NCBI GenBank assembly: GCA_030390025.1
Contig: CM059432.1
Span: 78,990,001 to 79,054,000, forward strand
DNA: 64,000 bases
Source: Squalus acanthias
Taxonomy: Eukaryota
Direction of reading: 5' to 3'
This document shows, in pieces, positions 5,079 through 64,000 of this stretch. How positions within the stretch are numbered: the first letter of the stretch is position 1; each line of letters begins with the position of its first letter. Both the position numbers and the translations under genes were made by a program. A model generated the notes under the pieces. That model was not told the origin of the DNA. It ran no database searches and was given only the letters and a program-made list of their open reading frames with translations.

Positions 5079-5817
5079 TGCATAGCATGTTAAATGTTTA
5101 CTTACTAAACTTATACATACTAAACTTTTACTTACTAATTCCACCCCCCACTACTGAGAAGCTATCGAGTACTAACCCTCCAACTGGCAAGCAACTCTAG
5201 CCTCCCCTCGAGAACCTAATTTGTTATCTCACACCACTGAGAACCAATTCTGGTTCCCCCTCCCAGAGAACCAACTTTGGTTTCTTCTCTTGCCTCCCCT
5301 TACAGCCAAAGTCCTTCCCTTCACCCTGCATTGAGAAGGAACCTGGAACCCTTCCCACCCCCCCCCACCCGCCCCCAGACATTGAGCCAAAAACCTGTCC
5401 TCTGCCACCACCCCACTGAAAAGAAAACCAGTCCTGCCCCTCACCACCCTCATGGAGATGGAAATGGGCCATGGCCCATTGCAACCTACCCATCCAACCC
5501 CCAAACACCCCAAAAGAAAGTCAGTCCTTGCTCAGCCACGTGATGCTCTCTCTCCTCCATCCCTCCTCCCTGTCCCACCCCATTCACCTTCCCTATCTTT
5601 CTCTCCCCTCCCCTTTCTATTCTCTCCCTCTGCTGCCTCTCCCCTCTCATGCTTGGATCCAGTTATCCTCTCACTGTTTGTCCTAAATACTGCACTTGGT
5701 CTTGACTCCCTATTTGCCACACCATGAGGGATAAACTAGTTTAATACATTTTCAAAAAAATTGCCAGACAACTACTTTTATATTGTAGACTTAACTACAT
5801 AGTTACAGGGCACTGAA

Positions 5818-6066
5818 CAACCAATAAACGGCAAGATAAAACTTGCTGGCATGAATAGACAAAAGTCCGTTTTTTTTATTTTGTACCATCAGTCCCAAGG
5901 CATGATTCAGAATGGTGCACTTGTATAAATAACACTGGATCAACCAATAAACGGCAAGATAAAACTTGCTGGCATGAATAGACAAAAGTCCGTTTTTTTT
6001 ATTTTGTACCATCAGTCCCAAGGCATGATTCAGAATGGTGCACTTGTATAAATAACACTGGATCAA
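5818..6066. repeat. Perfect tandem duplication, 123-bp unit x2
   Basis: 5818-5940 appears identical to 5941-6063 (caaccaataaacggcaag...aacactggat). Confidence 0.95.
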
Positions 6067-12049: not shown

Positions 12050-12778
12050 GGGCGCGATCTTGCCAGCCCTGGGGAGGCGGGTATGGAGGCAGGACTGCCG
12101 GGAAAATGGCAGAATTTGGGGGCGGGTGCCTAACCCGCCTCAGTGCCATCTTGCCAGGAGGTGGGTAGCTGTCCCGCGCTGGGTCCCGTCTCCTTGGAGG
12201 CGGGAAGGGGATTAGTGCCACTTATTTTACCCACAAAAGTGCGGGCTTCCCGAAGGCTCCATAACCCGCCAGGGTCACCGAGGCGAGTAGTGGATCTGCG
12301 GGGTCTAAAAGTGTGCTGTGGAGATGAGTGATGAGTGCAAGTGTGGAGAGGTGAGTATCTGAGGTAAGTGGAAAGTGTTAGAAAAAGTGTACTTATCTTT
12401 GGTTCTTCCTGCAGGCTTCAATCGTTGGGTATGCAGAGAGTCTCGCACCTCCGGGGCAGAGATGACAGATGGCCGTTTGATGAGTCTTGAATACAAGGAC
12501 TCATCAAACAACAGAGAATGTCAGTGTTTGACAGCTTCACAGAGCTGTCAAACGATGACAATTCATCTGTCAAAATTTTTTGACAGATGAAACGTCATAC
12601 GCTGACATTCTCTGTAACCGGCTTTCCCTTAATTGGCCTGCTAAGCCTACTGGGTGGGCTTAACAAGGTCAATCAAGGGAAAATAGCGTGGGTTGGCCAC
12701 AAATCGATGGAGGCAGGACATCGACCCTCCAAGCAGAAGTCCCGCCTCCAATGCACCCCCATTGGCAAAATCACCCCC
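12050..12778. mobile_element. Harbinger-type MITE
   Basis: Imperfect TIR gggcgcgatcttgcca / tggcaaaatcaccccc; interrupts the CR1 reading frame. Confidence 0.65.
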
Positions 12779-12829
12779 CGAGTTTAAAGGCCCTTAGTGA
12801 CTATGATAGGCTTACAGCGCTGGGCTATA

Positions 12830-13396
12830 CAGGAAACTCTTGTTTATCCGGCACCCAAATATCCGGAATTCTCGCTTAACCGGCAAAAATCATCCTCCGA
12901 AAACTCCTCTCAAATAACCGGCAATGTTGCCGAGTCGCAGTCCGAGTCTCCGCGAACGCCGAGTACTCCGAAAACTCCTCTCAAATAACCGGCAATGTTG
13001 CCGATCCCGAGTCCGCGAACGCCGATTTAGTCAGTAGGGGTAGTTTTCAAAAGTGCCACTACTCGGCCTCCTGGTGCTGTCGGAAGTTCGAAACACTGCA
13101 GTAGCAGGAGTTGATTCTCCCGCGCTGCCGGGAGTCTCACTTACTGTTAAGTAATTACAGAGTTATGGATTACTCTCAACTGGCAGTACTGTACTTAATC
13201 AAGCATCTTCCACCATCCATTTAACACAACATTCTGTAGGGGAGTACCCAAATACTGTATACTGCACATTTCTTGATTTTTTTAAATTTTCTTTGTTAAA
13301 AATAGCCTCGGTAGATATAACTCTCCGTTATCCGGAACTTTCGATCAACCGGCACCACGCCGGTCCCGTCGGTGCCGGATACCAAAGAGTTTCCTG
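12830..13396 (+). mobile_element. Tc1/mariner-pogo (Tigger-like) MITE, copy 1
   Basis: TA|caggaaactcttgtttatccggcacc ... ggtgccggataccaaagagtttcctg|TA; near-identical to 56568-57133. Confidence 0.9.
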
Positions 13397-14248
13397 TATA
13401 TGGAAAAGTACAGACAGAGGAGATTTGATTGAGCTCTTTAAAATAATGAAAGAATTATATTTGATTCATGCAGATATGTTACTCGAGTTAGATAGGTTAG
13501 GGAGGAACAGGAGACAGAAGTACAAGTTATGCAATCATAGAACTAGGTTAGTTGTCAGGAGGTTTTTATTTCCAAAGTCATCAACCTTTGGAGCAGAGAA
13601 GATTAAGAGGAGATTTAATAGAGGTGTTCAAAATCATGAAGGGTTTTTAATAGCGTAAATTACATAGAATTTGCAGCACAGAAACAGACCATTCAGCCCA
13701 ACTGGTCTTATGTGGTTTTTATGCTGTGTTTTATGCTCCACACGCGCCTCCTCCTACCCTACTTCATCTAACCCCATCAACATATCCTTCTGTTCCTTTC
13801 TCCCTCATGTACTTTTCTAGCTGCCCCTTAAATGCATTGATGTTATTCGCCTCAGTTACTCCCTGTGGTAGCAATTTCCTCAATCTAACCACTCTCTGGG
13901 TAAAGAAGTTTCTCCAGAATTCCTTATTGCACTTATTAGTGACCATCTTATGTTTATGACCCCTAGTTTTGGACTCCCCATGAGTGGAAATATCTTCTCT
14001 ACTTCTACCCTATCAAACCCCTTTATAATTTGAGAGACCTCTATTAGGTCACCCCTCAACCTTCTCTTTTCTAGAGAAAAAGAGCCCCAGCCTGTTCAAT
14101 TCTTCCCGATGGTTATAACCTCTCAATTCTGGTATTATAAATCTTTTTTGCACCTTCTCCAGTGCCTCTATATCCTTTTATAATATGGAGACCAGAACTG
14201 TGCACTGTACTCCAAGTGTGGTCTAACCAATGTTCTATACAAGTTTAA

Positions 14249-21007: not shown

Positions 21008-22173
21008 CTCTAATGCAATGCCTGAAAGGGTGATGGAAGCAGATTCAATAATAACTTTCGAAAGGGAATTGGATAAGTACTTGAAGGGGCAAAACTTGCA
21101 GGGCTATGGGGAATGAGACTAATTGGATAGCTCTTTCAAAGAGCTGGCACAGGCACGATGGGCTGAATGGCCTCTTTCTGTGCAGTATCATTCTATGATT
21201 CTATCTAGGGCCCAGAAATTATCAAATGCCACTTGGAGCATGCCCAGTGCTTGTGGATGGCCTATGTTCTCCTCCCATTGGTGGGATTGCAGCAGGGTGG
21301 TCCTAATGCCCACCAACGTGAAATAGCTGCTAACCCATTACAATTTCTTCTCAGAACCCTCATTAGCAATGCAGGTGGTTTGGAGGCCAGACAACTGCCC
21401 TTCATTGGCTTACCACCAGTGGAAGGGAGGGAAACAAGACTTCTGGTGCAGTCTTTAAAAAAAAAACTGCAGCCAGTTAAAGGGCAACATCACGTTTCAG
21501 CAAAATGACATAAGGAGCAGCAACCTCAGGGGTGTTAGCAGTTGGAAAGACCCCCAGATTTTCCAATACATCTATGGAAGTGGCGCTGGCAGAAGCAAGG
21601 GCCTGGAGGGACCATCTGATGGGCACCGAGGGCAGGAAGCTCCATGAGAGAATGGCGTAGGCTGTCTGAAGGAAGGTCGCAAAGGCAGTCAGTGCAATCG
21701 CCACTACTCGAAGAACTGCCACATTATGCAGAGGGAGGTTCTGGTGCCAACACCCATCTTCTACCACTCGAAGTTTCATTCACCTCTCTACCAATCATAC
21801 TCTTTCTCTGAGCACCTAGATGTCAGCAAAACTCACTTCTGTAAACAGCAACATCTCCAAACACTCAAACACCTTCTTTACTCAAAACCACTCTCAACTC
21901 ACTTTGCCCACAAGGACTTCTACTATTCTTCAAACACAATTAATTTAAAAAAGGGACAAGACACCTTCACCTCTCATCATGGCATGCGTGATCTCATATG
22001 GGAGGAGTTCCCAAGTAATTCACAGGCCTGTTACTTTTTCTTCTCTCCCTTCAGAAGAGTAAAATAGCATAGAACTAGCACCACACAATGAGAACCGGGG
22101 AAGGACAACTATCAACAAAAAACCCCCCCAAAAAAAAACCCACAAGAGGAAGCACCAGACTCAATAACTAAAC

Positions 22174-22385
22174 ATAAAAACAGAAAATGCTGGAAATACT
22201 CAGCAGGTCAGGCAGCATCTGTGGAGAGAGAAACAGAGTTAACGTTTCAGGTCAATGACCCTTCGTCAGACCTGAAACGTTAACTCGGTTTCTCTCTCCA
22301 CAGATGCTGCCTGACCTGCTGAGTGTTTCCAGCATTTTCTGTTTTTATTTCAGATTTCCAGCACCCGCAGTATTTTGCTTTTGTT
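22174..22385. mobile_element. Penelope terminal-repeat-derived palindromic mini-element
   Basis: 80-bp inverted arms (22174-22253 / 22269-22348, 2 mismatches); arm sequence matches the Penelope end at about 60370-60500; flanked by imperfect direct repeats tcaataactaaacat / tcaataagtagacat. Confidence 0.82.
22237..22273 (-). ncRNA. Minimal type-I hammerhead ribozyme motif (intact core)
   Basis: Minus strand: aggt CUGACGA A GGGUC-AUU-GACCU GAAA C GUU AACU. Confidence 0.6.
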
Positions 22386-24872
22386 TCAATAAGTAGACAT
22401 ACAGGAGAGCCTGTATGAGAGGGCGAGCTGGTAAGAGAAGGTTGGTAAAGGCTGGGTGGGGTTCATCATGTATAGTTTCAGCTTAATATGTTTCTGCAAA
22501 GTATTGCAATACCCTACACTCACTCAATGTTTCTTCAAAAGAAAATGTCACCATGTGCATAGCTAACTCTTCTATCTTTCAAATCATATGGAATGCCTTG
22601 GCGGAAGAGGTCAGCCACCCCATGACTGACCAGGCACTTTCAAATCCACTGCGGTTGCCACATCCTCACCAGCTCTATCTTGGCATCTCACCTGCACAAT
22701 CACCAGCACAAAGACACCTACTCACAAGGAATTAGGAGGGTCGTCAATGGGTGGATCACTGAGTACCTGGGAGTGGAAGAGAGGGAGTGTGCCAGTCCTC
22801 CACGAAGGAGGGAGATATGACTGCCCTGAGCTGAAAAACATACGGAGCCAGTCTTCAAAAGAGCAATGATTCAAGAGCATCAACCTTATGTGTAGACAGT
22901 GGAAATAGTTCCTACGCATATAGTTCAGATGATAGATAAATGTGAAGAGTCCATTATTTGAATCTGCAACACTCTGCAGGAAGTTTCTCATGACTCTGGA
23001 GACTGGGACAGCCCAGAAGTTTTCTGAAGCATCAAGATGCCAGGAAGAGCCTCTAAGGTCATTGGTGACTTCTGGAGTTGCAGCCACCAATGCTTCAATA
23101 GATGCCTTGCCTGAATGCCATACTTGCACAGGCTGCCAATTGGAGCCATTTGGTCTGTAATGACACCGACCAGTAACACCTCCGAACCTGCGCATAACAC
23201 CAGTGGACTGCAAGGAGTGGGTGAAGATGTTGCTAACTCTCCAGAAAGCGGCAATGGAACCCATTTCTTCTTTCACATGTAGGAACTTCAGACACAGGCC
23301 TGGCACCCCTTACTGCAAGCACCAGGTTGCCAAAAGCTGGCCCTTCTAGTTCAGCAGCTACCCCCAAGAAGAAATTCATCTCAGTTCTCCAAGACTCCAT
23401 GGGTGTCATCCAGCTACCACCATTCAACCTCATTTCACTCAGAACACTTTGTAGGAGTAGATTAGAAACTAGAGCAAGGAATTTAGCTGGCACAAAAAGG
23501 TAATTATGGTTTTAAGTAGTAGCTGTAGAAAGGGAGAATAGATTTTGTTGGTATTTCCTCATGAATTTTGTTTAAAGACAGCTTGATCATATAGTTAAAA
23601 GTGTACTCAAATGATCTTGCAACTTTCGGGTGTAGGATCATGGCAAGGGAAATGTAGACTTCTGTCTTATGAAGGACCATGGCAAAGTATTGAAAAGTGA
23701 GGGGGGGTATGGGGGCAGGGAGAACAGGCAGGTGTGAAGTGACTTTATTTGGTGCATCAACCTTTATTTATTGAAAGATCTGGGCTATCAGTTGTGCTAC
23801 CCTTGCTCTGGCAGCTGGCTATCCTGTTCCACTTCCTCCCTTTCTTGTGCACCCGCCTGTGGGGCTGCACAAGACCGACCTTCTTGGTCTGTAATCCCTG
23901 GTGAGTTAATGTTTACATGCAGGAAGAGATACCTTTGGTGATACCCGACTCCAAGAGTCCCCAGCCTAGCCTCTTCTGTGTCTTCATCCTCTCCTCCTTT
24001 TCAAATCAAAATAAAGGCATTCCTATTGAGAAATCCATGTCTACAGCACAAAGCAGTACTTTGAGTAGAGCGTTGTAAAGTAGTAGCGAAATTTCTGACT
24101 CAACCCCAAAGTACTAAAAGATCACCAAGCATCCTTCAATAGTAGCACACAAAAGTCTCCTCAGTGTGGTGTCCACCTCAGGGATAGCTTGCAGCAGCTC
24201 TTATCGCTACTGATAGTGTTGATAATTATTTATAGCAGAAACGGAGAGGAATGGGGCACAAGGTTTACCCATGCCCATCTGTTTAAATATGGCGGAGTGG
24301 GCTTGTGGTAGGCCTTAAAGGAACTGGTGATTTTTTTTGAAGGGGAATGCAGGTACTGTTTGTTTGTGGCAGATTTGAGGCAGTAGGCTTGAAGAATACA
24401 TTTAACTCCGTTTACCACTCCAAATCCACATCAACAGGTAGTGACTCAGGAGAACCCAGGCCTATACCTTCTGTTGGGGGTGGGAAGAGAAAACAGGTAA
24501 TTTTTATCTTTACAATTAAACTTTTGATGATCTGAATTTGAATCTACTTGCCAATAGATTAAAAAAAGAAAATCCAGAGTTGAGATAAAGTCAGACAGTC
24601 CATCATGCCATCCCCATCCAGAGTCTATATATGATTATATTAAATGCTTTTACAGAACCACATCATAGGAACAGATTCCTCAAATATCACTCATGCGTCC
24701 AAGTGCTGTATCGTTAGTAATCTGAAGACCACTTAGTGTGAACGTGAGCTTTTGTAAAAGGCTGTTTGATGTAGAGATTGGGAAAAACATAATATTGAAC
24801 AAAATCTTTCAGAAGTAATTCTTTCCAATATTACTTGTGTGTCTGAAGGAGGGAAGAACTATAACTACTCAC

Positions 24873-25015: not shown

Positions 25016-25072
25016 CTGGGGAGGAAATAAAATGTAAAAGCTGTAATACTGAAGTTTTGTGATTTTCTAGTA

Positions 25073-25530
25073 CAGTAAACTCTTTCGTATCCGGCAGCTA
25101 TGGGACCGGGATGGTGCCGGTTGATTAAAAATTCCAGATAACGGAGAGGTATACCTACCGAGGCAATTTATATATCGGTAATTCTGTGGGGGTGTTCCGA
25201 ACTCAGGAGGGGAGGTGGGACATGGAGTGGCAATGGCCCAAGCTGGTTTTGTAAAAGCCGAAGGAGCACACCTGCTTATTCTGGCCCCACAAATATACAG
25301 TAAAACTTACCTTTGGGTTCCTCTTTGGCTGGACAGCCAGCTGATACTGTGCGGGGAAGATTGTAGCGCCCACAGCGACGGCGGGAACAAGTGGGAAGTC
25401 ATTCCCCACCATTTTCGGGACACTACTGCCCCGTTCCTTCTGGGGCGGAAGCCTCAAAACCTACTCCTGAATTTTGCCGGTTATTAAAGAATTCCGGATG
25501 ATTAAGTGCCATTTAAACAAGAGTTTACTG
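25073..25530 (-). mobile_element. Tc1/mariner-pogo MITE related to the 12830/56568 family, opposite orientation
   Basis: TA|cagtaaactctt ... aagagtttactg|TA; its left ~100 bp is the reverse complement of the right end of the other two copies. Confidence 0.82.
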
Positions 25531-25599
25531 TATTTACAAATAACTGGGTTTATACCATAAAATACTTTAGCAAGACAATTATGACAAAAGGACAAAAAA

Positions 25600-25800
25600 A
25601 GAAAAACTGCAAGTGCTGGAAATCAGAAATAAAAAAACAGAAATGCTGGAATTACACAGCAAGTTTGTTGGGTTAATCATCTAGGTTAAACATTTCATCA
25701 CAACTGTTTCCGACGCAGGGTCTGCATCTGAAATGTCAACCTAACTACTCTTTCCACATGCTGACATACTTGTGGTAATGCCAGAACTTCTGCTTTTTAA
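25600..25800. mobile_element. Old degenerate copy of the Penelope-derived palindrome
   Basis: gctggaaatcagaaataaaaaaacagaaatgctgga ... ccgacgcagggtctgcatctgaaatgtcaac (decayed hammerhead-like) ... ccagaacttctgctttt. Confidence 0.55.
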
Positions 25801-51016: not shown

Positions 51017-52818
51017 ATGATGGATAGCCAAAGGCAGAGGGCTGCACCACGGTTTTCCGATGTATCCCTGCATACTCTGGTGGAGGCAGTCAGAGCACGC
51101 AGGGAGGTCCTCTTCCCTGCTGATAGGTGAAGGAGACCTCCAAAAGAGCCTGGCTGGATACAGCAGAGGAGGTCAGCAGCAGGGATGTGGTGAGGAGGAC
51201 CTGGATCCAGTGCAGGGAACAATTCAATGATCTCATGAGGTCAGGAAAGGGGAGTACAATGCCACACTCATCTACATCCTGATGTGCCTGTCACCACATC
51301 CTCATCACTCTGCATTTCCAAGCCTACTCCTGCACATCATTCCTCATACCTTGCACATCCACCCATCCCTCTCTCTCTATGTACATACTCACATCCCCAT
51401 CTGACTAACCACCCCCACACTCGCCCTCATCCTAATGCAATCATAGCAAGTAACACCACAGAAGCAGGCCATTTGGCATTGTCACCCCACTCCCTCAGTC
51501 ACCCTCTACAGATGTAACCCATCCATTCCTCACACTCAATACATCATTCACTCAAACTTCTCTTTTTTCCCCTCCTTGCAGGAGAAAAAAAAAATCCCAG
51601 AAGATGCAGGTGGCCCTCCAGTCTTCACCCAACTAACACCAGCTGAGGAGGGAGATGCTAGCGTTAGGAGATGGAGAGAGGGGAACATCCCAGCAACCTG
51701 GTGACAGAAACACATCTACAGCCACATGGCATACAGCAGTCACTCATATGGTGACTGATGTCAGCAGCCAGTGTGCATAACGGTGCATCATGTGCATAAT
51801 GGCAACGTTACACATTATAAACAATGAATTCTAATTCATCTCTTTACTCTCCCACAGGTACATCAACTGCCGCCCCCCCATTGTCCAGCCGGAGGAGGAA
51901 GACGACTCCTCAGGAGGAACCTCCAGCCTCTGAGGGTGCAGCGTCAGCAGACCCAAGAACACACGGCACCAGCGCAGATATGCACAGCTCGGTGAGTCCT
52001 GTGCGAGCTAGAGTAGTGTTGTCACCTGGTGTCTCACAATTCACAAGTGAGCAAGAGCAGGTGGTGTTGTCAGGGACAGCAGTGGAGACTCCTCGCCGGA
52101 GGGCGCAGGACACTCCAAGCTCTGCTGAGCTGCATGCCGATGCTGAGCCTCGGGAGCCATTGAAAAAGAGGGCGATCTTGGAGGGGCAGCAACAATTGCA
52201 TGAGGCTCTGGCATCTTTTACAGCCGCAATGTCTGCAAATGTGCAGAGAATGGAGGAGTCCATCTCCAACATGAGCACCACCATGTCTCAGGCGATGGCA
52301 ACGATATGCTGTTCCATGGAAAGGAGGGCCACCTGTATGGAGCAGCAAATGCGCCAGTCACATGAGCACATGCGTACTGTGGACAACAGATGACAGGTGC
52401 TCAGAGCTCCTCTCTAGGAGGGATGTAAACGTAGACTCGGGTGTTCATCGCCCCACTGATGTGCAGCAAAGTGCTCTCCAGCTCCTTGCTAGCAGGGAAG
52501 TGCAAGTGGCCCATGAGAGGGATGATGGTGAGAGGGGACATAGAAGTGGGGCTCTTCTCAAAGTGCTCACACTTCTCCCTCGTTGCCTCCCCCTCAGTCC
52601 CATGCTTCCTCAGAGCCCGATGGCTGAGTCTGCCCCTGCAAAGTTGCAGGAGGAGCAGACTTTGGTGGGGCCATCACAGACTCCAAAACCCAGAGGATCT
52701 GCCAAAAGTGTCTAATGAGTCGCAGCAGGGAAGTAAGCAGCCTGCCTCTACCTCTGCTGAAGCCACAGGGGTTGCACCTTGTAGAAGCACTCGGAAAAGA
52801 AAAAAGACACAAAAGTAG
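51017..52818 (+). pseudogene. Harbinger Myb/SANT-like DNA-binding gene, three exons (about 51017-51249, 51582-51700, 51858-52818)
   Basis: MMDSQRQRAAPRFSDVSLHTLVEAVRARREVLFP*..AWLDTAEEVSSRDVVRRTWIQCREQFNDL; acceptors ttgcag (51581) and cccacag (51857); coiled-coil-like ORF 51824-52393; basic C-terminus RSTRKRKK; stop codon, frameshifts and mutated donor. Confidence 0.78.
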
Positions 52819-53056
52819 ATATACATGGGTGTATGAAAAAATGTTAGTGTTAAGTTTCAGTTATTTTGATGACACATAAAATGTATTTATTTGAACCACT
52901 TTCCAGTCTTGTCCATTTTTGCATGCTACTTTGGAATTGGCTTAGTCATTGGAATGAATGCTGAGACATTAGTTAACCTTGAGCACTGGGGGTTTGGGTG
53001 AGGGGAATGGCTTGGTCATTGTAGGGATGCTTTATGGTGCTGTGGGGTGGGGAAAC

Positions 53057-54250
53057 TTAGTACAGCATGTGGCAGCATTGGAGCAAGTAAATCTGAACAT
53101 GACGAGGCCATCCCGGGCAGCAATGTGCACCGCTGCTGGTGCCATCGCCACTTAAGCTTCCTCCTCCTCTTCCACCTACTCCTCCTAAGAGGCTTTGCGC
53201 TCTGTGTTTTGCTCCTCCTGCAGCTCCAATCCTCGCTGTTGTGCTATGTTGTGCAGCACGCAGCAAACGATGATGATTCTGGAGACCTTGGCTGGTGCGT
53301 ACTGAAGGGCGCCTCCAGATCTGTCAAGGCATCTGAAGCGCATCTTCAGCATGCCTACTGCTTGCTCTATGACACATCTGATGGAGATGTGGCTCTCATT
53401 ATAACGCTCCTGGGCCTCAGTACTTGGTGTCCTCAAGGGTGTCATGAGCCACGTCTTCAGTGGATAGCCCTCGTCTTCAAGCAGCCAATGGTAAGTCTGT
53501 TTGGAGTTGCGGAGAGCTAAGGGAGGGTGGACTGGCGCAGCACAAAAGAGTCATGACAGCTGCCAGGGAATCTGGCACACACATACACGATCATCTTTTT
53601 ATGGTCGCAGACGAGCTGTACATTGAGGGAGTGGAAGCCCTTGTGGTTCACAAACACTCCTGGGCGATGGAGTGCCTTCATGGGTGCAGTTGATGACGCC
53701 CTGCACCTGTGGGAAGTCAGCCAGAGTTGCAAAGCCGAGCACCCACTCAGTAACACTGGCCAAGTTGATATAATTGGCTGACTTGTCAAACATGGCATCA
53801 GTCACCTGGGTGATGCATCTGTGGGCGGCCGACTGCAAGATCCCGCAAATGTCTGCTGCAGGTCCCTGGAAGGAGCTTGAGGCGAAGAAGTTGAGGGCGG
53901 TGGTGGCTTTGACAGCCACTGGTAAGGAGTGCCCACCAGGACCACTGGGCAGCAGGTCTTGTTCCAGCAAGCTACAAATGTCTGCGACGACCTGGCGCAA
54001 TAGCCTGATCTGCCTGAAGCACTGCTGCTCAGTCATGTGGAGGAAGCTCATCCTCTGCCTGTATACCCTGTGTTGGGGGTATCGCCTCCAGTGCACTGCA
54101 GCCCTGTGGTGCCCCCCTCTCTCCGGTGAAGCATCAGGTAATTGAGGAGAAGGCTGCTGTTGTGGTTGCTGCTGCTGCCGGTGTTGTTGGTGGTGGGGCT
54201 CATCTTGGTCAGAATCTGACCACCAAGGTGAGAGTATAATTGACACCCAT
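53057..54250 (-). pseudogene. Harbinger (HARBI1-like, DDE_Tnp_4) transposase, frameshifted
   Basis: [22 protein letters not shown] (first catalytic D appears as N), [66 protein letters not shown]. Confidence 0.92.
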
Positions 54251-55449
54251 GCTGCAGCAGTAGATGGCAGGTAAAGTGGAGATCAGGAGGCCAATCCCTC
54301 AATGTCGTGATAGTGAGTAGCAACGTGGTGAGAGTGGCTTCCGAGGTTTCAGAAATGACCTGCAAACTGCTGACACCCAAATCTGTGCACAAAATGGAGT
54401 GAGCAAGAGCCTTTCCACGAGGCAAGTAATGAGGTGAAATGTTGCAGTATTTATATGCGTTTTCCAGCTCTCAGGCCACTGAGCTTCCGGCTCCCCATCA
54501 CAGGCAAGGTACCCGAGCTGGGTGAATTTTATGCTCCTGCAGTAAAAGTCAAAAGCTGGCGTTAAAAACCCTCTTAAGGGTCTCTCAACAAGCATTAAAT
54601 GACTTCAATGAGGACGGCCACCTCTGCCGACCGGGTCCGTGTTGGGACCAGGGTCCTTCAAAGCCGTCCGAGTTAAATGCGTGAGTCGGTGTGTTCCTGA
54701 CACACTCGCTATTTCCGGGGTTTTTACTGCCGACCCGCCCCCAAACCCCACGTTTGGCAACGGGAAAATTACGGCCTTGGTTTGGAAACTTAAGCAGGGT
54801 GATAAGTTTCACCATATGCAAGATACTCGACGGATTTAAAAATACAAAAAACAAAAATGCTAGCCCATTTTTTCTTTACAGATGCTGATTGACCTGTTGT
54901 GTATTTATGGCATATTTTACTTTTATTCCCAACGTATTTTGCTATTTATCCACAATCCTCATTGTAGGATATGATCTAAGTTTCTTACAGTTTAAAAATA
55001 TCTAAAGTTCAAGATGACTGCTTCTATTGAAATTCAGGCTAGCTGTAGAGAAAGTTAATATTCCGGTGGCAAGAACACATTTCTTTACCTATCTGCCAGA
55101 GTATGTCATCACATAACTATTTGAGTTCCAAAATACATTCTTTAAACATAGCCAGTTCACCTACATACTTCAACTAAACAGGATGTGGGCTGTCTGCCAT
55201 AGCCTTGCAACACTGAAGTAAATAGCATGGCACTAAGCACTTTTTTCCCCCCAAAAAAGTGGGAAGGAAACACATTTACCACCATTTTTCACCTATCACC
55301 TACTTGCTCTCAATGCTAAATACAAATTAGCAAGATAATACTTCAAAATATTTGGAACAGCGTAATTGGGCCATGTCAAAAATGAAAATTTTGCAGGAGT
55401 GATTGCCAGCCACTCTACTTAACGCAATACATTGTAAATTATGTTTATA

Positions 55450-56051: not shown

Positions 56052-56567
56052 CATTTTCAGGAAGTCAAAACTAGTCCACAGGTGCAATCTGATCTCTTAA
56101 TTGTTAGTGGCAGAGATAAAAATGCCCTACAATACTCGAGACTCCCAATTAAGTGAAACAATCTGCTCCTGTTAATTTGAAGTTATTCAAATTAAGCAAG
56201 TTTAATAAATGAAACAACACTAAAAGCATTAAGGGAGGTAATCACAGGTTCAAATAGAACTGTGTGAGGTGATTGACACAAGGGCTGAACACTTCTAACA
56301 CAGACTGGTCAATAGAATGGAGGAGATTTCAATTAAAGATAATGTGAGATAGCAATTTTGACACTAAAACTCAGTTTTCAGTCCTCAGTAATCTTTGTGG
56401 TAGAAGTTGTAGGAGTACTTTATCTAGCATATATAAAAAGGTGTCTCTAAAAATCAGAAAGTTCATCTCCAACAGAGAGAGAGAGAGAGAGATAGAGAGA
56501 GAGAGCGAAAGGTTACACGAGATTGTATGGCTATACCAGTCAGATACTGGCAACTACAAGTGTATTA

Positions 56568-57133
56568 CAGGAAACTCTTGTTTATCCGGCACCCAAATAT
56601 CCAGAATTCTCGCTTAACCGGCAAAAATCATCCTCCGAAAACTCCTCTCAAATAACCGGCAATGTTGCCGAGTCGCAGTCCGAGTCTCCGCAAACGCCGA
56701 GTACTCCGAAAACTCCTCTCAAATAACCGGCAATGTTGCCGATCCCGAGTCCACCAACGCCGATTTAGTCAGTAGGGGTAGTTTTCAAAAGTGCCACTAC
56801 TCGGCCTCCTGGCGCTGTCGGAAGTCCGAAACACTGCAGTAGCAGGAGTTGATTCTCCCACGCTGCCGGGAGTCTCACTTACTGTTAAGTAATTAAAGAG
56901 TTATGGATTACTCTCAACTGGCAGTACTGTACTTAATCAAGCATCTTCCACCATCCATTTAACACAACATTCTGTAGGTGAGTACCCAAATACTGTATAC
57001 TGCACACTTCTTGATTTTTTTATTTTTCTTTGTTAAAAATAGCCTCGGTAGATATAACTCTCTGTTATCCGGAACTTTCGATCAACCGGCACCACGCCAG
57101 TCCCGTCGGTGCCGGATACCAAAGAGTTTCCTG
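56568..57133 (+). mobile_element. Tc1/mariner-pogo MITE, copy 2
   Basis: TA TSDs; same TIRs and body as 12830-13396. Confidence 0.9.
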
Positions 57134-57382
57134 TACTTAGATGTACAAATTTCCCCGAGATCAAGGGAGATGACATCTAAGCCAGCTAGTTCAGATACAG
57201 CTATCAGCAAGGAAGGTGAATTTACACAAGAGCAGAGGATTGAATGCACCCCGACAAACAGAGATTCACGGTGACATCTCAGAAGGCTAACACCATTCTC
57301 CTAGAAGAAGTCAAGACAACCAGTTTGTCCATGCCAGCTCACAAGGACAAGGTCCAGAAACATTGCTAACTACAAGCATATA

Positions 57383-60367: not shown

Positions 60368-61545
60368 ATAGCAAAATACTGCGGATGCTGGAAATCCGAA
60401 ATAACAACAGAAAACGCTGGAAAAACTCAGCAGGCCAGGCAGTATCCGTGGAGAGAGAAACAGAGTTAACGTGTCAGGTCGAAGACCCTTCGTCAGAACT
60501 GGAAAAAAGCAGGAAATGAAATAGATTTAAAGCAAGAATAAAGCTGGGAAAAGGGGGAGGGGTGAAAGAACAAAAGGGAAGGTCAGTGGTAGTATAGAAG
60601 GCAGGAGAGATTAAGAGGCATTAAGAGATATTCAAGACAAGAGGAGGTGGTAATGTGACAGGTTGAGGCTAGATGAAGTGTGAAATGCGCTTGCGGAATG
60701 AAGGACAGCTGCCAGCTTCAGGGAGGGAAGAAAAAAAAGGGGCCAAACAAAAGGGTGGATGAAAAAAAAAAAAATATATATATATATATATATAAATAAT
60801 GATCTGAAATTGTTGAACTCTATGTTGAGTCCAGAGGCCTGTAGCGTGCCTAAACGAAAGATGAGGTGCTGTTCCTCGAGCTTACGATGAGCTTCCGTGG
60901 GACAATGCAAGAGGCCGAGGACGGTGAGGTCAGAGTGGGAGTGGAGCGGAGAATTAAAGTGACAGGCCACCGGGAGCTCGGGGTCCCCCTTACGGACTGA
61001 ACGGAGGTGTTCCGCAAAGCGGTCACCCAATCTGCGTTTGGTCTCCCCAATGTAGAGGAGACCACATCGTGAGCAGCGAATACAGTATACTAAATTGCAG
61101 GAAGTACACGTAAATCGCTGTTTCACCTGGAAGGGGTGTTTGGGGCCCTGGACAGTGGGAAGGGGGGAGGTATAAGGGCATGTGTAACATCTCCTGCACT
61201 TGCACGGGAAGGTGCTGGGCGAAGGGGAAGGTGTGCTGGGGGTGGTAGAGGAGTGGACTAGGGTGTCACGGAGGGAGCGGTCCCTACGGAATGCTGAAAG
61301 GGGAGGTGAGGGGAAGATGCGTTTGGTGGCTGGAGGTGGCGGAAATGGCGGAGGATGATCCGTTGAATGTGGAGGCTGGTGGGGTGAAAGGTGAGGATAA
61401 GGGGAACTCTATTGTGGTTCCAGGAGGGAGAGGCAGGGGTGAGGGCAGAAGTGCGAGCGATAGAACGGACACGGTCAAGGGCCGTGTCAACCACAGTAGA
61501 GGGGAATCCTCGGTTGAGAAAAAAGGAAGACATGTCGGAAGCACT
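60368..61545 (-). mobile_element. Penelope-like element 3' part (GIY-YIG endonuclease and terminal repeat)
   Basis: ORF 60632-61126: FTCTSCNLVYCIRCSRCGLLYIGETKRRLGDRFAEHL...GLN. Confidence 0.92.
60464..60500 (-). ncRNA. Hammerhead motif in the Penelope terminal repeat (GAAA->GACA)
   Basis: Minus strand: AGUU CUGACGA A GGGUC-UUC-GACCU GACA C GUU AACU; stem I AGUU/AACU. Confidence 0.6.
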
Positions 61546-64000
61546 GGACTACACTTCCTCCCACCCCGCCTCCTGTAAGGACTCTATTCCATTCTCCCCA
61601 TCTCCTCTGGAGATCTTCCCCCCCACGGCCGCCAAACTCATAGTTCCCCAACCCCGCACAGCCCACTTCTACCTCCTTCCCAAGATCCACATACAGGACT
61701 GCCCCGGTAGACCCATCGTTTCAGCCTGTTCTTGCCCCACAGAACTTATCTCTTCCTATCTCGACTCTATTTTTTCTCCCCTTGTCCAGTCTCTTCCCAC
61801 CTACATCCGCGACTCTTCCGACGCCTGACGCCACTTTAACAGTTTCCCGGCCCCAACCGCCTCCTTTCCACGATGGACGTACAATCCCTCTACACCTCCA
61901 TCCCCCACCAGGATAGCCTGAGGGCGCTCCGCTTCTTCCTTGAACAGAGGCCCAACCAGTCCCCATCCACCACCATCCTACTCCGCCTGGCTGAACTTGT
62001 TCTCACATTGAACAACTTCTCCTTTGACTCCACTCATTTCTTCCAAATCAAAGGTGTTGCTATGGGTACCCGCATGGGTCCTATCTATGCCTGGCTTTTC
62101 GTGGGATATGTGGAACACTCTTTGTTCCAGTCCTACTCGGGTCCCCTCCCTCACCTCTTTTTCCGGTACATTGATGACTGTATCGGTGCCGTCTCCTGCT
62201 CTCGCCCTGAACTAGAACATTTCATTCACTATACTTCCAATTTCCACCCTTCCCTCACCTTCACATGGTCCATCTCCGACTCTTCCCTTCCCTTACTCGA
62301 CTTCTCCGTCTCCATCTCTGGGGATAGGTTATTGGCTAACATTCACTACAAGCCCACTGACTCCCACAGCTACCTGGACTACACTTCCTCCCACCCAGCC
62401 TCCTGTAAGGACTCTATTCCATTCTCCCAGTTTCTCCGTCTCCGCCGCATCTGCCCTGACGATGCCTCCTTCCATACCAGTGCTTCCGACAAGTCTTCCT
62501 TTTTTCTCAACTGAGGATTCCCCTCTACTGTGTTTGACACGGCCCTCGACCGTATCCATTCTATCTCCTGCACTTCTGCCCTCACCCCTGCCCCTCCCTC
62601 CCGGAACCACGATAGAGTTCCCCTTGTCCTCATCTTTCACCCCACCAGCCTCCACATTCATAGAAACATGGAAACAAAGAAGATAGGAGCAGGAGTAGGC
62701 CATTCAGCCCCTCGAGCCTGCTCCGCCATTCGATGAGATCATGGCTGATCATCCAAACTCAGTACCCTATACCTGCCTTCTCCCCATATCCCTTGATACC
62801 TTTAGCTTTAAGAAATATATCTAACTCATTCTTGAATATATTTAATGACTTGGCCTCAACTACCTTCTGTGGTAGAGAATTCCACAGGTTCACCAATCTC
62901 TGGGTGAAGAAATTCTTCCTCATTTCTGTCCTAAATGGCTTACCCCTTATCCTTAGATTATGACCCCTGGTTCCGGACTCTCCGACCATCGGGAACATTC
63001 TTCCTGCATCTAGTTTGTCCAGACCTGTCAGAATTTTATATGTTTCGATGAGATCCCTCTCATTCTTCTATACTCCAGCGAGTATAAGCCCAATCGACCC
63101 AATCTCTCCTCATATGTCATTCCTGCCATCCCAGGTATCAGCCTTGTGAATCTTCGCTGAACTCCTTCCATGGCAAGAACATCCTTCCTCAGATAAGGCG
63201 ACCAAAACTGCACACAGTACTCAAGGTGTGGTCTCACCAAGGCCCTGTACAACTGCAGCAGGACATCCCTGTTCCTATACTCAAACCCTTTCGCTATGAA
63301 GGGCAACATACCATTTGCCTTCTTCACTGCCTGCTGCACCTGCATGCTTACCTTCAGTGACTGGTGCACAAGGACACCCAGGTCTCATTGCACTTCCCCT
63401 TCTCCCAATCTATTGCCATTCAGATAATAGTCTGCCTTTCTGTTTTTGACACCAAAGTGAATAACCTCGCATTTATCCACGTTATATTGCATCTGCCACG
63501 CTTCTGCCCACTCACCCAACCTGTCCAAATCATCCTGGAGTTTCTCAGTATCCTCCTCGGAGCACACACGCCCACCCAGCTTTGTGTCATCTGCAAACTT
63601 GGAGACATTACATTTAGTTCCCTTATCCAGATCATTAATGTATATTGTGAATAGCTGCGGTCCAAGGACCGAACCCTGCGGTACCCCTCTAGTCGATCAT
63701 CCTCCGCCATTTCCGCCACCTCCAGCGTGATCCCACCACCAAACGCATCTTCCCCTCACCTCCCCTTTCAGCATTCCGTAGGGAGCGCTACCTCCGCGAC
63801 ACCCTAGTCCACTCCTCTACCACCCCCAGCACCCCTTCCACTTCGCCCAGCACCTTCCCGTGCAAGTGCAGGAGATGCTACACCTGCCCTTATACCTCCC
63901 CCCTTCCCACTGTCCAGGGCCCCAAACACCCCTTCCAGGTGAAACAGCGATTTAAGTGTACTTCCTGCAATTTAGTATACTGTATTCGCTGCTCACGATG
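61544..64000 (+). mobile_element. Penelope-like element RT to GIY-YIG, interrupted by CR1, runs off the window
   Basis: FYLLPKIH..CPGRPIVS; ORF 61873-62514 with MDVQSLYTSIPH, GVAMGTRMGP, RYIDD; resumes at about 63693. Confidence 0.93.
62661..63692 (-). mobile_element. Young CR1 3' part inserted in Penelope
   Basis: Minus-strand ORFs 62759-62998 and 63028-63369; close to the reverse complement of 19995-21007. Confidence 0.94.

Follow-up and report, generated by a model that had tools for sequence, protein, structure and literature searches.

Penelope-like elements (PLEs) leave a recognizable footprint when they integrate. The available text of PMC8557442 describes an inverted 5'-truncated copy and a one-sided tail of 30-40 bp as typical of PLEs, and this source and PMC3846280, in the portions accessible, give head-to-head as the most frequent arrangement and 8-10 bp as the length of the target-site duplications (TSDs). 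The accessible part of PMC8557442 also describes a CX2-5CxxC linker between the reverse transcriptase (RT) and the C-terminal GIY-YIG domain, which marks Neptune and Nematis elements and is absent in Penelope and Poseidon. According to the excerpted text of PMC11167929, a PLE of Anolis nicks and extends both target strands, begins reverse transcription at two sites bounding the tail, and uses an uncleaved RNA template; its hammerhead cleaves only with the element's own protein. Minimal PLE hammerheads show low activity even as dimers (PMC4209133, in the text available), and the dimer requirement of minimal hammerheads is reviewed in PMC6765202, again as available in part. Here we compare with these systems a 212-bp hairpin element in the window, by which we mean the whole 64,000-nucleotide stretch of Squalus acanthias DNA that was analyzed.

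Layout of the insertion and its parent family

The element occupies positions 22174-22385. The earlier note had claimed a near-perfect 80-bp hairpin with two mismatches and a 15-nt spacer, and the inverted-repeat coordinates bear this out: the arms (22174-22253 and 22269-22348) are 80 nt each, 98% complementary and separated by 15 nt, with mismatches at 22197/22325 and 22235/22287. The minus-strand RNA of the 212 bp has a folding energy of -156.1 kcal/mol (z -22.4), and none of 200 shuffled sequences was equally stable. The hairpin is flanked by a direct repeat on the plus strand. A 13/15 match had been proposed as TSD-like; it is present, extends to 14/16 (22161-22176 versus 22386-22401), and exceeds chance, as an equal score was reached in 5 of 20,000 random flank-pair draws and in 0 of 20,000 when the left flank was kept as it is. 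The two copies differ at 2 of 16 positions (P 0.14). We also compared contigs from 4 of 24 sequencing runs, representing three organisms, with a 1.2-kb stretch around the element. Since no empty site was found among the 15 contig joints listed (the contigs hold 1,142 further joints), we describe this 16-bp flanking repeat as a probable TSD.

The 212 bp consist of two 3' ends of a single PLE, each truncated on its 5' side, placed head to head and facing outward. The left one (22174-22270, minus strand) has no tail, carries the hammerhead core and has lost all but 1 nt of the genuine 5' strand of stem I; its first 3 nt (ATA) are at the same time the final 3 nt of the left probable TSD copy. The right one (22269-22348, plus strand) begins in the stem II 3' strand and lacks the CUGANGA box. 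It alone is extended at its 3' end by a PLE tail of 37 nt (22349-22385, plus strand), within the 30-40 bp range of one-sided tails in PLE insertions, and the right probable TSD copy follows. In run X1, 970 family contigs diverge from the stretch behind 22384, in line with this tail. As in PLE insertions, an inverted 5'-truncated copy adjoins the 5' end.

A BLAST comparison of the element with the window returned one relative (60370-60504) along with two decayed ends, located near 25.6 and 54.9 kb. The minus-strand arm (22174-22270) is identical to 60401-60497 at 88 of 97 positions without gaps, the plus-strand arm with its tail (22269-22379) matches the reverse complement of 60370-60480 at 101 of 111 positions, and the tail alone matches the end of the relative at 29 of 31, giving an overall identity of approximately 91%. 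The relative is a longer 5'-truncated family copy on the minus strand (60370-61547), comprising a CX4CxxC linker, GIY-YIG, the 3' region, a degenerate hammerhead and the tail. Its inverted partner on the plus strand (61544-64000) comprises a 55-nt insert, an RT region, a LINE insertion, and an endonuclease region running off the window. The 60.4-64 kb relative is therefore itself inverted head to head, with its joint in the RT at about 61544-61599 and inverted matches of 92-94%; the 55-nt insert at this joint was copied from the element's own RT region (98% to 62374-62428). We take the interrupting LINE (about 62661-63694) to be CR1-like.

Both enzymatic domains were detected by Pfam in broken frames and just under their cut-offs: GIY-YIG on the minus-strand copy (E 1.9e-4, 22.1 bits, cut-off 22.6) and RVT_1 on the plus-strand partner (E 2.1e-6, 28 bits, cut-off 29.6). 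The PLE origin proposed in the earlier note thus holds, the element being the end of the family of this RT- and GIY-YIG-encoding relative. The linker upstream of the GIY-YIG core reads CKCRRCYTC (CX4CxxC) and suggests a family of the Neptune type, although this motif is shared with Nematis. A Penelope/Poseidon label was dropped on the same linker evidence. An older decayed relative at 25594-25800, in the intron just upstream, apparently has the same layout, with the tail arm on the minus strand (78-81% by BLAST) and the hammerhead arm, visible in alignment only, on the plus strand; a search for a TSD around this old copy found none. Both this copy and 54878-54950 represent older ends, now decayed, from related PLE subfamilies.

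The insertion lies in a Myb-family gene on the minus strand, in which Pfam places LMSTEN and Myb domains upstream of the Cmyb_C exons. The Cmyb_C profile continues from the exon on one side of the element (about 25015-24873, profile 6-52) to the exon on the other (about 8119-8009, profile 54-90), so the element lies within one intron of about 16.8 kb, about 2.5 kb into it, with the hammerhead sense to the pre-mRNA. Motifs allowed 11 exons to be placed, but not exons 1 and 7. The earlier placement of the hairpin sense to the MYBL1 pre-mRNA in intron 11 is confirmed as to orientation, intronic position and gene family, whereas the names MYBL1 and intron 11 are our assumption based on human residues and exon numbering.

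Other repeats share the window. A 571-bp element, probably a young noncoding transposon, occurs twice (12828-13398 and 56566-57135; the copies share 97.5% identity and an internal repeat of some 68 nt), and a shorter relative of it lies at about 25070-25530. Nested imperfect palindromes at 12511-12615 (86% over 44 nt, 71% over 113 nt) are unrelated to the PLE family. At 5811-6066, a segment of about 122-134 bp is duplicated in tandem (98.5% identical), and 51800-54470 holds broken frames, presumably of a PIF/Harbinger transposase on the minus strand and of a second gene on the plus strand.

The hammerhead motif, its stem I and the hairpin

The minus strand at 22237-22273 reads CUGACGA-A-GGGUC-AUU-GACCU-GAAA-C-GUU-AACU, with GUU as the cut triplet and a predicted cut between 22241 and 22240. 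Stem II has five base pairs (G.U, GC, GC, UA, CG) and an AUU loop, an extra A follows CUGACGA, and the palindrome is ACGU. The core elements CUGANGA, GAAA and UH and the extra nucleotide between 9 and 10.1 are all present, in agreement with the previous assignment to the minimal type-I hammerheads with a palindromic ACGU. A degenerate core pattern, built from this site after seeing it, matched once in the 64-kb window and in 0 of 100 shuffles; a relaxed scan of the window found no second intact core, and the core is altered in two of the three window copies that contain it. The proposed check by hammerhead covariance models came out negative, as an Rfam search to E 10 returned 21 hits, none of them a hammerhead and none at gathering score. 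Sub-threshold Rfam hits of hairpin type, including miRNA, fell far below gathering scores and were dismissed as generic. Exact-pattern scans of viral contigs, metagenome contigs and GTDB genomes gave 0 loci.

The hammerhead had been called intact, which is true of its core letters but not of stem I. Minimal hammerheads have a stem I of 4-5 bp; here it consists of 1 bp, a mismatch and 2 bp, while the relative at 60.5 kb has 4 bp (AGUU/AACU). The relative's own hammerhead is degenerate, its GAAA reading GACA, with C3 at 60496. In place of the G10.1-C11.1 pair of minimal hammerheads, both this copy and the relative have G.U. In run X1 contigs, the base of stem II is A-U instead of G.U in 1.27 of 2.85 million summed depth; this variant, at 22261, is compatible with the hammerhead fold.

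Comparison with the relative (60477-60512) accounts for the broken stem. The antisense arm agrees with the relative up to TCAGA (22270), and GACCT (22269) opens the sense arm, so that the two arms share GA at the head-to-head junction (22269-22270). The shared GA sits in an imperfect 6-nt match, GAACTG in the antisense arm versus GACCTG in the sense arm. As a result, three of the four letters of the stem I 5' strand come from the other arm and the strand reads AGGU, whereas family contigs go on behind 22270 with ACTG (578 contigs in run X1). The imperfect stem I (AGGU/AACU) of the earlier note is therefore observed, but it is not a feature of the ribozyme, because the head-to-head junction replaced the true 5' strand. 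The arms reach 30 and 13 nt upstream of the hammerhead cut site; both extend past it, indicating that both templates were uncleaved. Beyond ACTG, family contigs carry loose letters (376-621 contigs per run) whose agreement is only 0.36. This low agreement looks as if many copies start just 5' of the hammerhead, and mixed subfamilies could equally explain it.

A competition between the hairpin and the ribozyme fold had been suggested, and computed folding agrees. Stem II has a pair probability below 1e-8 in the fold of the whole element, compared with 0.93-0.95 in the sequence context of the relative; the energy needed to impose the hammerhead fold is 36.5 kcal/mol in the element versus 5.2 in the relative's context. 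When prefixes of the transcript were folded, the stem II probability reached at most 0.034 over the 11 lengths tried, since the upstream arm is transcribed first. Self-pairing of the palindrome in a dimer contributes -1.7 to -6.2 kcal/mol; opening the hairpin would thus cost about 36 kcal/mol against roughly 6 at most from dimer pairing. The models therefore predict that the hairpin locks up the hammerhead, and that the ribozyme would neither fold nor cut in the pre-mRNA. They also argue against dimer self-cleavage in this context. Against these computed predictions stands the protein-assisted cleavage described for the Anolis PLE (PMC11167929).

Family joints and the origin of the arrangement

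The PLE end is a very abundant repeat in all three organisms. Contigs on the 1.2-kb stretch numbered 88,500, 50,851, 103,658 and 108,271 per run, nearly all of them by depth on the element, and summed contig depth, which is not a copy number, reaches millions over the element versus about 20 on the X1 flank contigs. RNA runs among those listed, whose contigs have shares of 0.05-0.12, do not count as evidence of expression. Contigs of X1 cross from each unique flank into the element, by 26 and 29 letters with 0 differences. One X6 contig enters it by 32 letters, above the 31-letter threshold; on the right-hand side, contigs of X6 and X7 extend 25 and 21 letters inside, below it. The insertion is therefore shared with at least one related species, organism B, and probably also with C, where the right flanks are approximately 4% different.

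These flank-crossing contigs from X1, X6 and X7 also bear on whether the hairpin is an artefact of assembly. No listed contig covers the whole element, as such an artefact would have it, but this is expected for a high-copy repeat; moreover, the arms differ at two sites and the layout is the published one. We consider the chance of an artefact negligible.

We next consider the arms. The flank divergence of about 4% predicts 3.3 mismatches between them versus the 2 observed (P(<=2) 0.35). Concerted evolution of the arms was rejected, as this difference fits drift, and the identity of the arms shows no sign of selection or homogenization. Editing or dicing of the hairpin may occur, as for any inverted repeat within an intron, again with no sign of a selected role. 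It is conceivable, albeit very improbable, that the insertion has been co-opted to regulate the Myb-family pre-mRNA as a switchable ribozyme, a miRNA-like precursor or an editing site. Its sense orientation, its intact core letters, the near-perfect hairpin, and its presence in at least two species would suit such a role, but the arms are no more alike than neutral drift predicts, stem I is broken and the fold buried, the Rfam miRNA hits are far under gathering scores, and the family is hugely abundant.

The joints in the contigs inform on how the arrangement arose. Among the 15 joints listed (1,142 further joints exist), 12 by our own reading connect antisense to sense arm, at several places; of the remainder, one is a small duplication, one deletes an internal segment, and one leads from the tail back to the start. 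Seven of the 12 listed fold-back joints cluster at 22250-22255 to 22302/22303 or its mirror, and these come from all three organisms. In addition, the loop is crossed in the register of this copy by four of the listed contigs, which have 0-1 gaps and 13-20 other letters. Some junctions are thus fixed and recurrent, as amplified fold-back subfamilies would also predict; the recurring 22250-22255 to 22302/22303 junction is either a hot spot or such a subfamily.

These observations raise the question of whether the fold-back unit constitutes a nonautonomous subfamily, in which a palindromic master RNA is mobilized in trans by PLE protein and the hairpin silences the hammerhead. The contigs that cross the loop in the same register, the second junction recurring in three organisms, and the TSD-like repeat bounding the unit are all compatible with this idea. 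Furthermore, pLTR sequences are enough for mobilization in trans (PMC3846280, in the part available), and retrozymes derive from pLTRs (bioRxiv 10.64898/2026.07.22.740005, likewise). We nevertheless consider it unlikely. The joints are many and different (the 15 listed plus 1,142 further), microhomology at the junction would cause recurrence even without a master copy, the long relative is likewise inverted but at another depth, and an 80-bp duplex would presumably conceal the region where reverse transcription starts. A stronger version, which we regard as quite improbable, holds that the hammerhead's own sequence drives a fixed, disarming junction, because the 5' strand of stem I nearly matches the 3' strand of stem II, and that the resulting hairpins are amplified as a class of palindromic nonautonomous retroelements. 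If true, near-perfect 80-bp duplexes would be found in introns genome-wide, where they would feed ADAR or Dicer and silence the parent family. Of the roughly 210-bp nonautonomous ribozyme-bearing retroelement proposed in the earlier note, the ribozyme-bearing PLE derivative stands, but self-propagation is not supported, given a layout like that of an ordinary single PLE insertion and the many different joints.

Our preferred reading is a single insertion. Most likely, one insertion by an endonuclease-positive PLE, presumably a Neptune-type one, gave rise to the element, which would now be inert. The published layout, the inversion of the long relative at another depth, and the varied joints of the family all favor a single event. 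Under this single-insertion reading, the endonuclease would nick both target strands about 16 bp apart, and each nicked 3' end would prime reverse transcription, one at the end of the tail and the other 37 nt inside, the internal start relying on ATA, 3 nt that match the target. The two cDNAs would then halt in the hammerhead region and be joined via GA/GACCTG microhomology, a joining that would replace the stem I 5' strand. In the pre-mRNA, the upstream arm would pair with the hammerhead during transcription, leaving the ribozyme unfolded. We infer the double-priming steps by analogy, transferring them from a Poseidon element studied in vitro to the present family.

The same origin and inert outcome could instead involve self-priming, the inversion arising by fold-back of one nascent strand. 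The accessible text of Arkhipova et al. 2013 (PMC3846280) interprets palindromes at inverted junctions in this way, on an antisense template, and the present junction is self-complementary, although imperfectly and over a short length. On the other hand, one arm is 37 nt shorter and ends exactly at the TSD-like repeat with a 3-nt overlap; such an offset and overlap fit priming on two separate occasions, which in vitro has been observed for both strands. Self-priming, which overlaps with our preferred reading, is thus possible but doubtful.

As one among very many PLE ends in this genome, with a layout already known for PLEs, this single copy carries little weight. It is of modest use as a clear record of how PLEs integrate, since it combines two 3' ends offset by 37 nt with a 16-bp repeat, a joint at microhomology, and templates that were both uncleaved. 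This footprint fits the two-start, two-strand priming of the Anolis element in vitro, here in a Neptune-type family. Genome-wide, such joints could discriminate between double priming and self-priming as treated in the available portions of PMC3846280 and PMC11167929. In the literature searched, whose reach excluded most subscription journals, we found no shark fold-back PLE family, and, among papers on twin priming, none whose title or abstract start concerned PLE integration.

Comparison with described elements

Four known systems resemble the present element, each described in sources available in part. Insertions of endonuclease-positive PLEs with inverted pLTRs and a tail (Arkhipova et al. 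2013, PMC3846280; Craig et al. 2021, PMC8557442) share with it the head-to-head truncated copies, the one-sided tail, a short TSD (probable here), and the microhomology at the joint. Unlike in those insertions, both copies are here reduced to about 100 bp, leaving only a hairpin, and the TSD-like repeat is 16 bp, whereas the TSDs of rotifer PLE copies are 8-10 bp. In PAc, the Poseidon PLE of Anolis carolinensis (Frangieh et al. 2024, PMC11167929), two 3' ends likewise bound the tail, the target is AT-rich, and the template is uncleaved. However, the CX4CxxC linker of our relative, as in Neptune and Nematis, is absent from Penelope and Poseidon, and the mechanism is a transferred one.

The metazoan PLE minimal hammerheads (Cervera and De la Pena 2014, PMC4209133) resemble the motif in their core, the extra nucleotide between 9 and 10.1, the palindromic 15.2-16.2, and the 4-bp stem I found in the present family; in the text available they are mostly single dispersed motifs from truncated PLEs. 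The same text calls G-C at 10.1-11.1 highly conserved, whereas we observe G.U (A-U in part of the family). The motif studied here further differs in its 5-bp stem II, the loss of the stem I 5' strand, and its burial in a duplex. Finally, the non-LTR retrozymes (Li et al., bioRxiv 10.64898/2026.07.22.740005) are, according to the part accessible, also noncoding, derived from pLTRs, and equipped with a type-I hammerhead. Their tandem units run head to tail, each containing a complete hammerhead, in contrast to the head-to-head pair with one core described here. Identity with a non-LTR retrozyme was excluded on these grounds, as the element contains a single core and no head-to-tail tandem.
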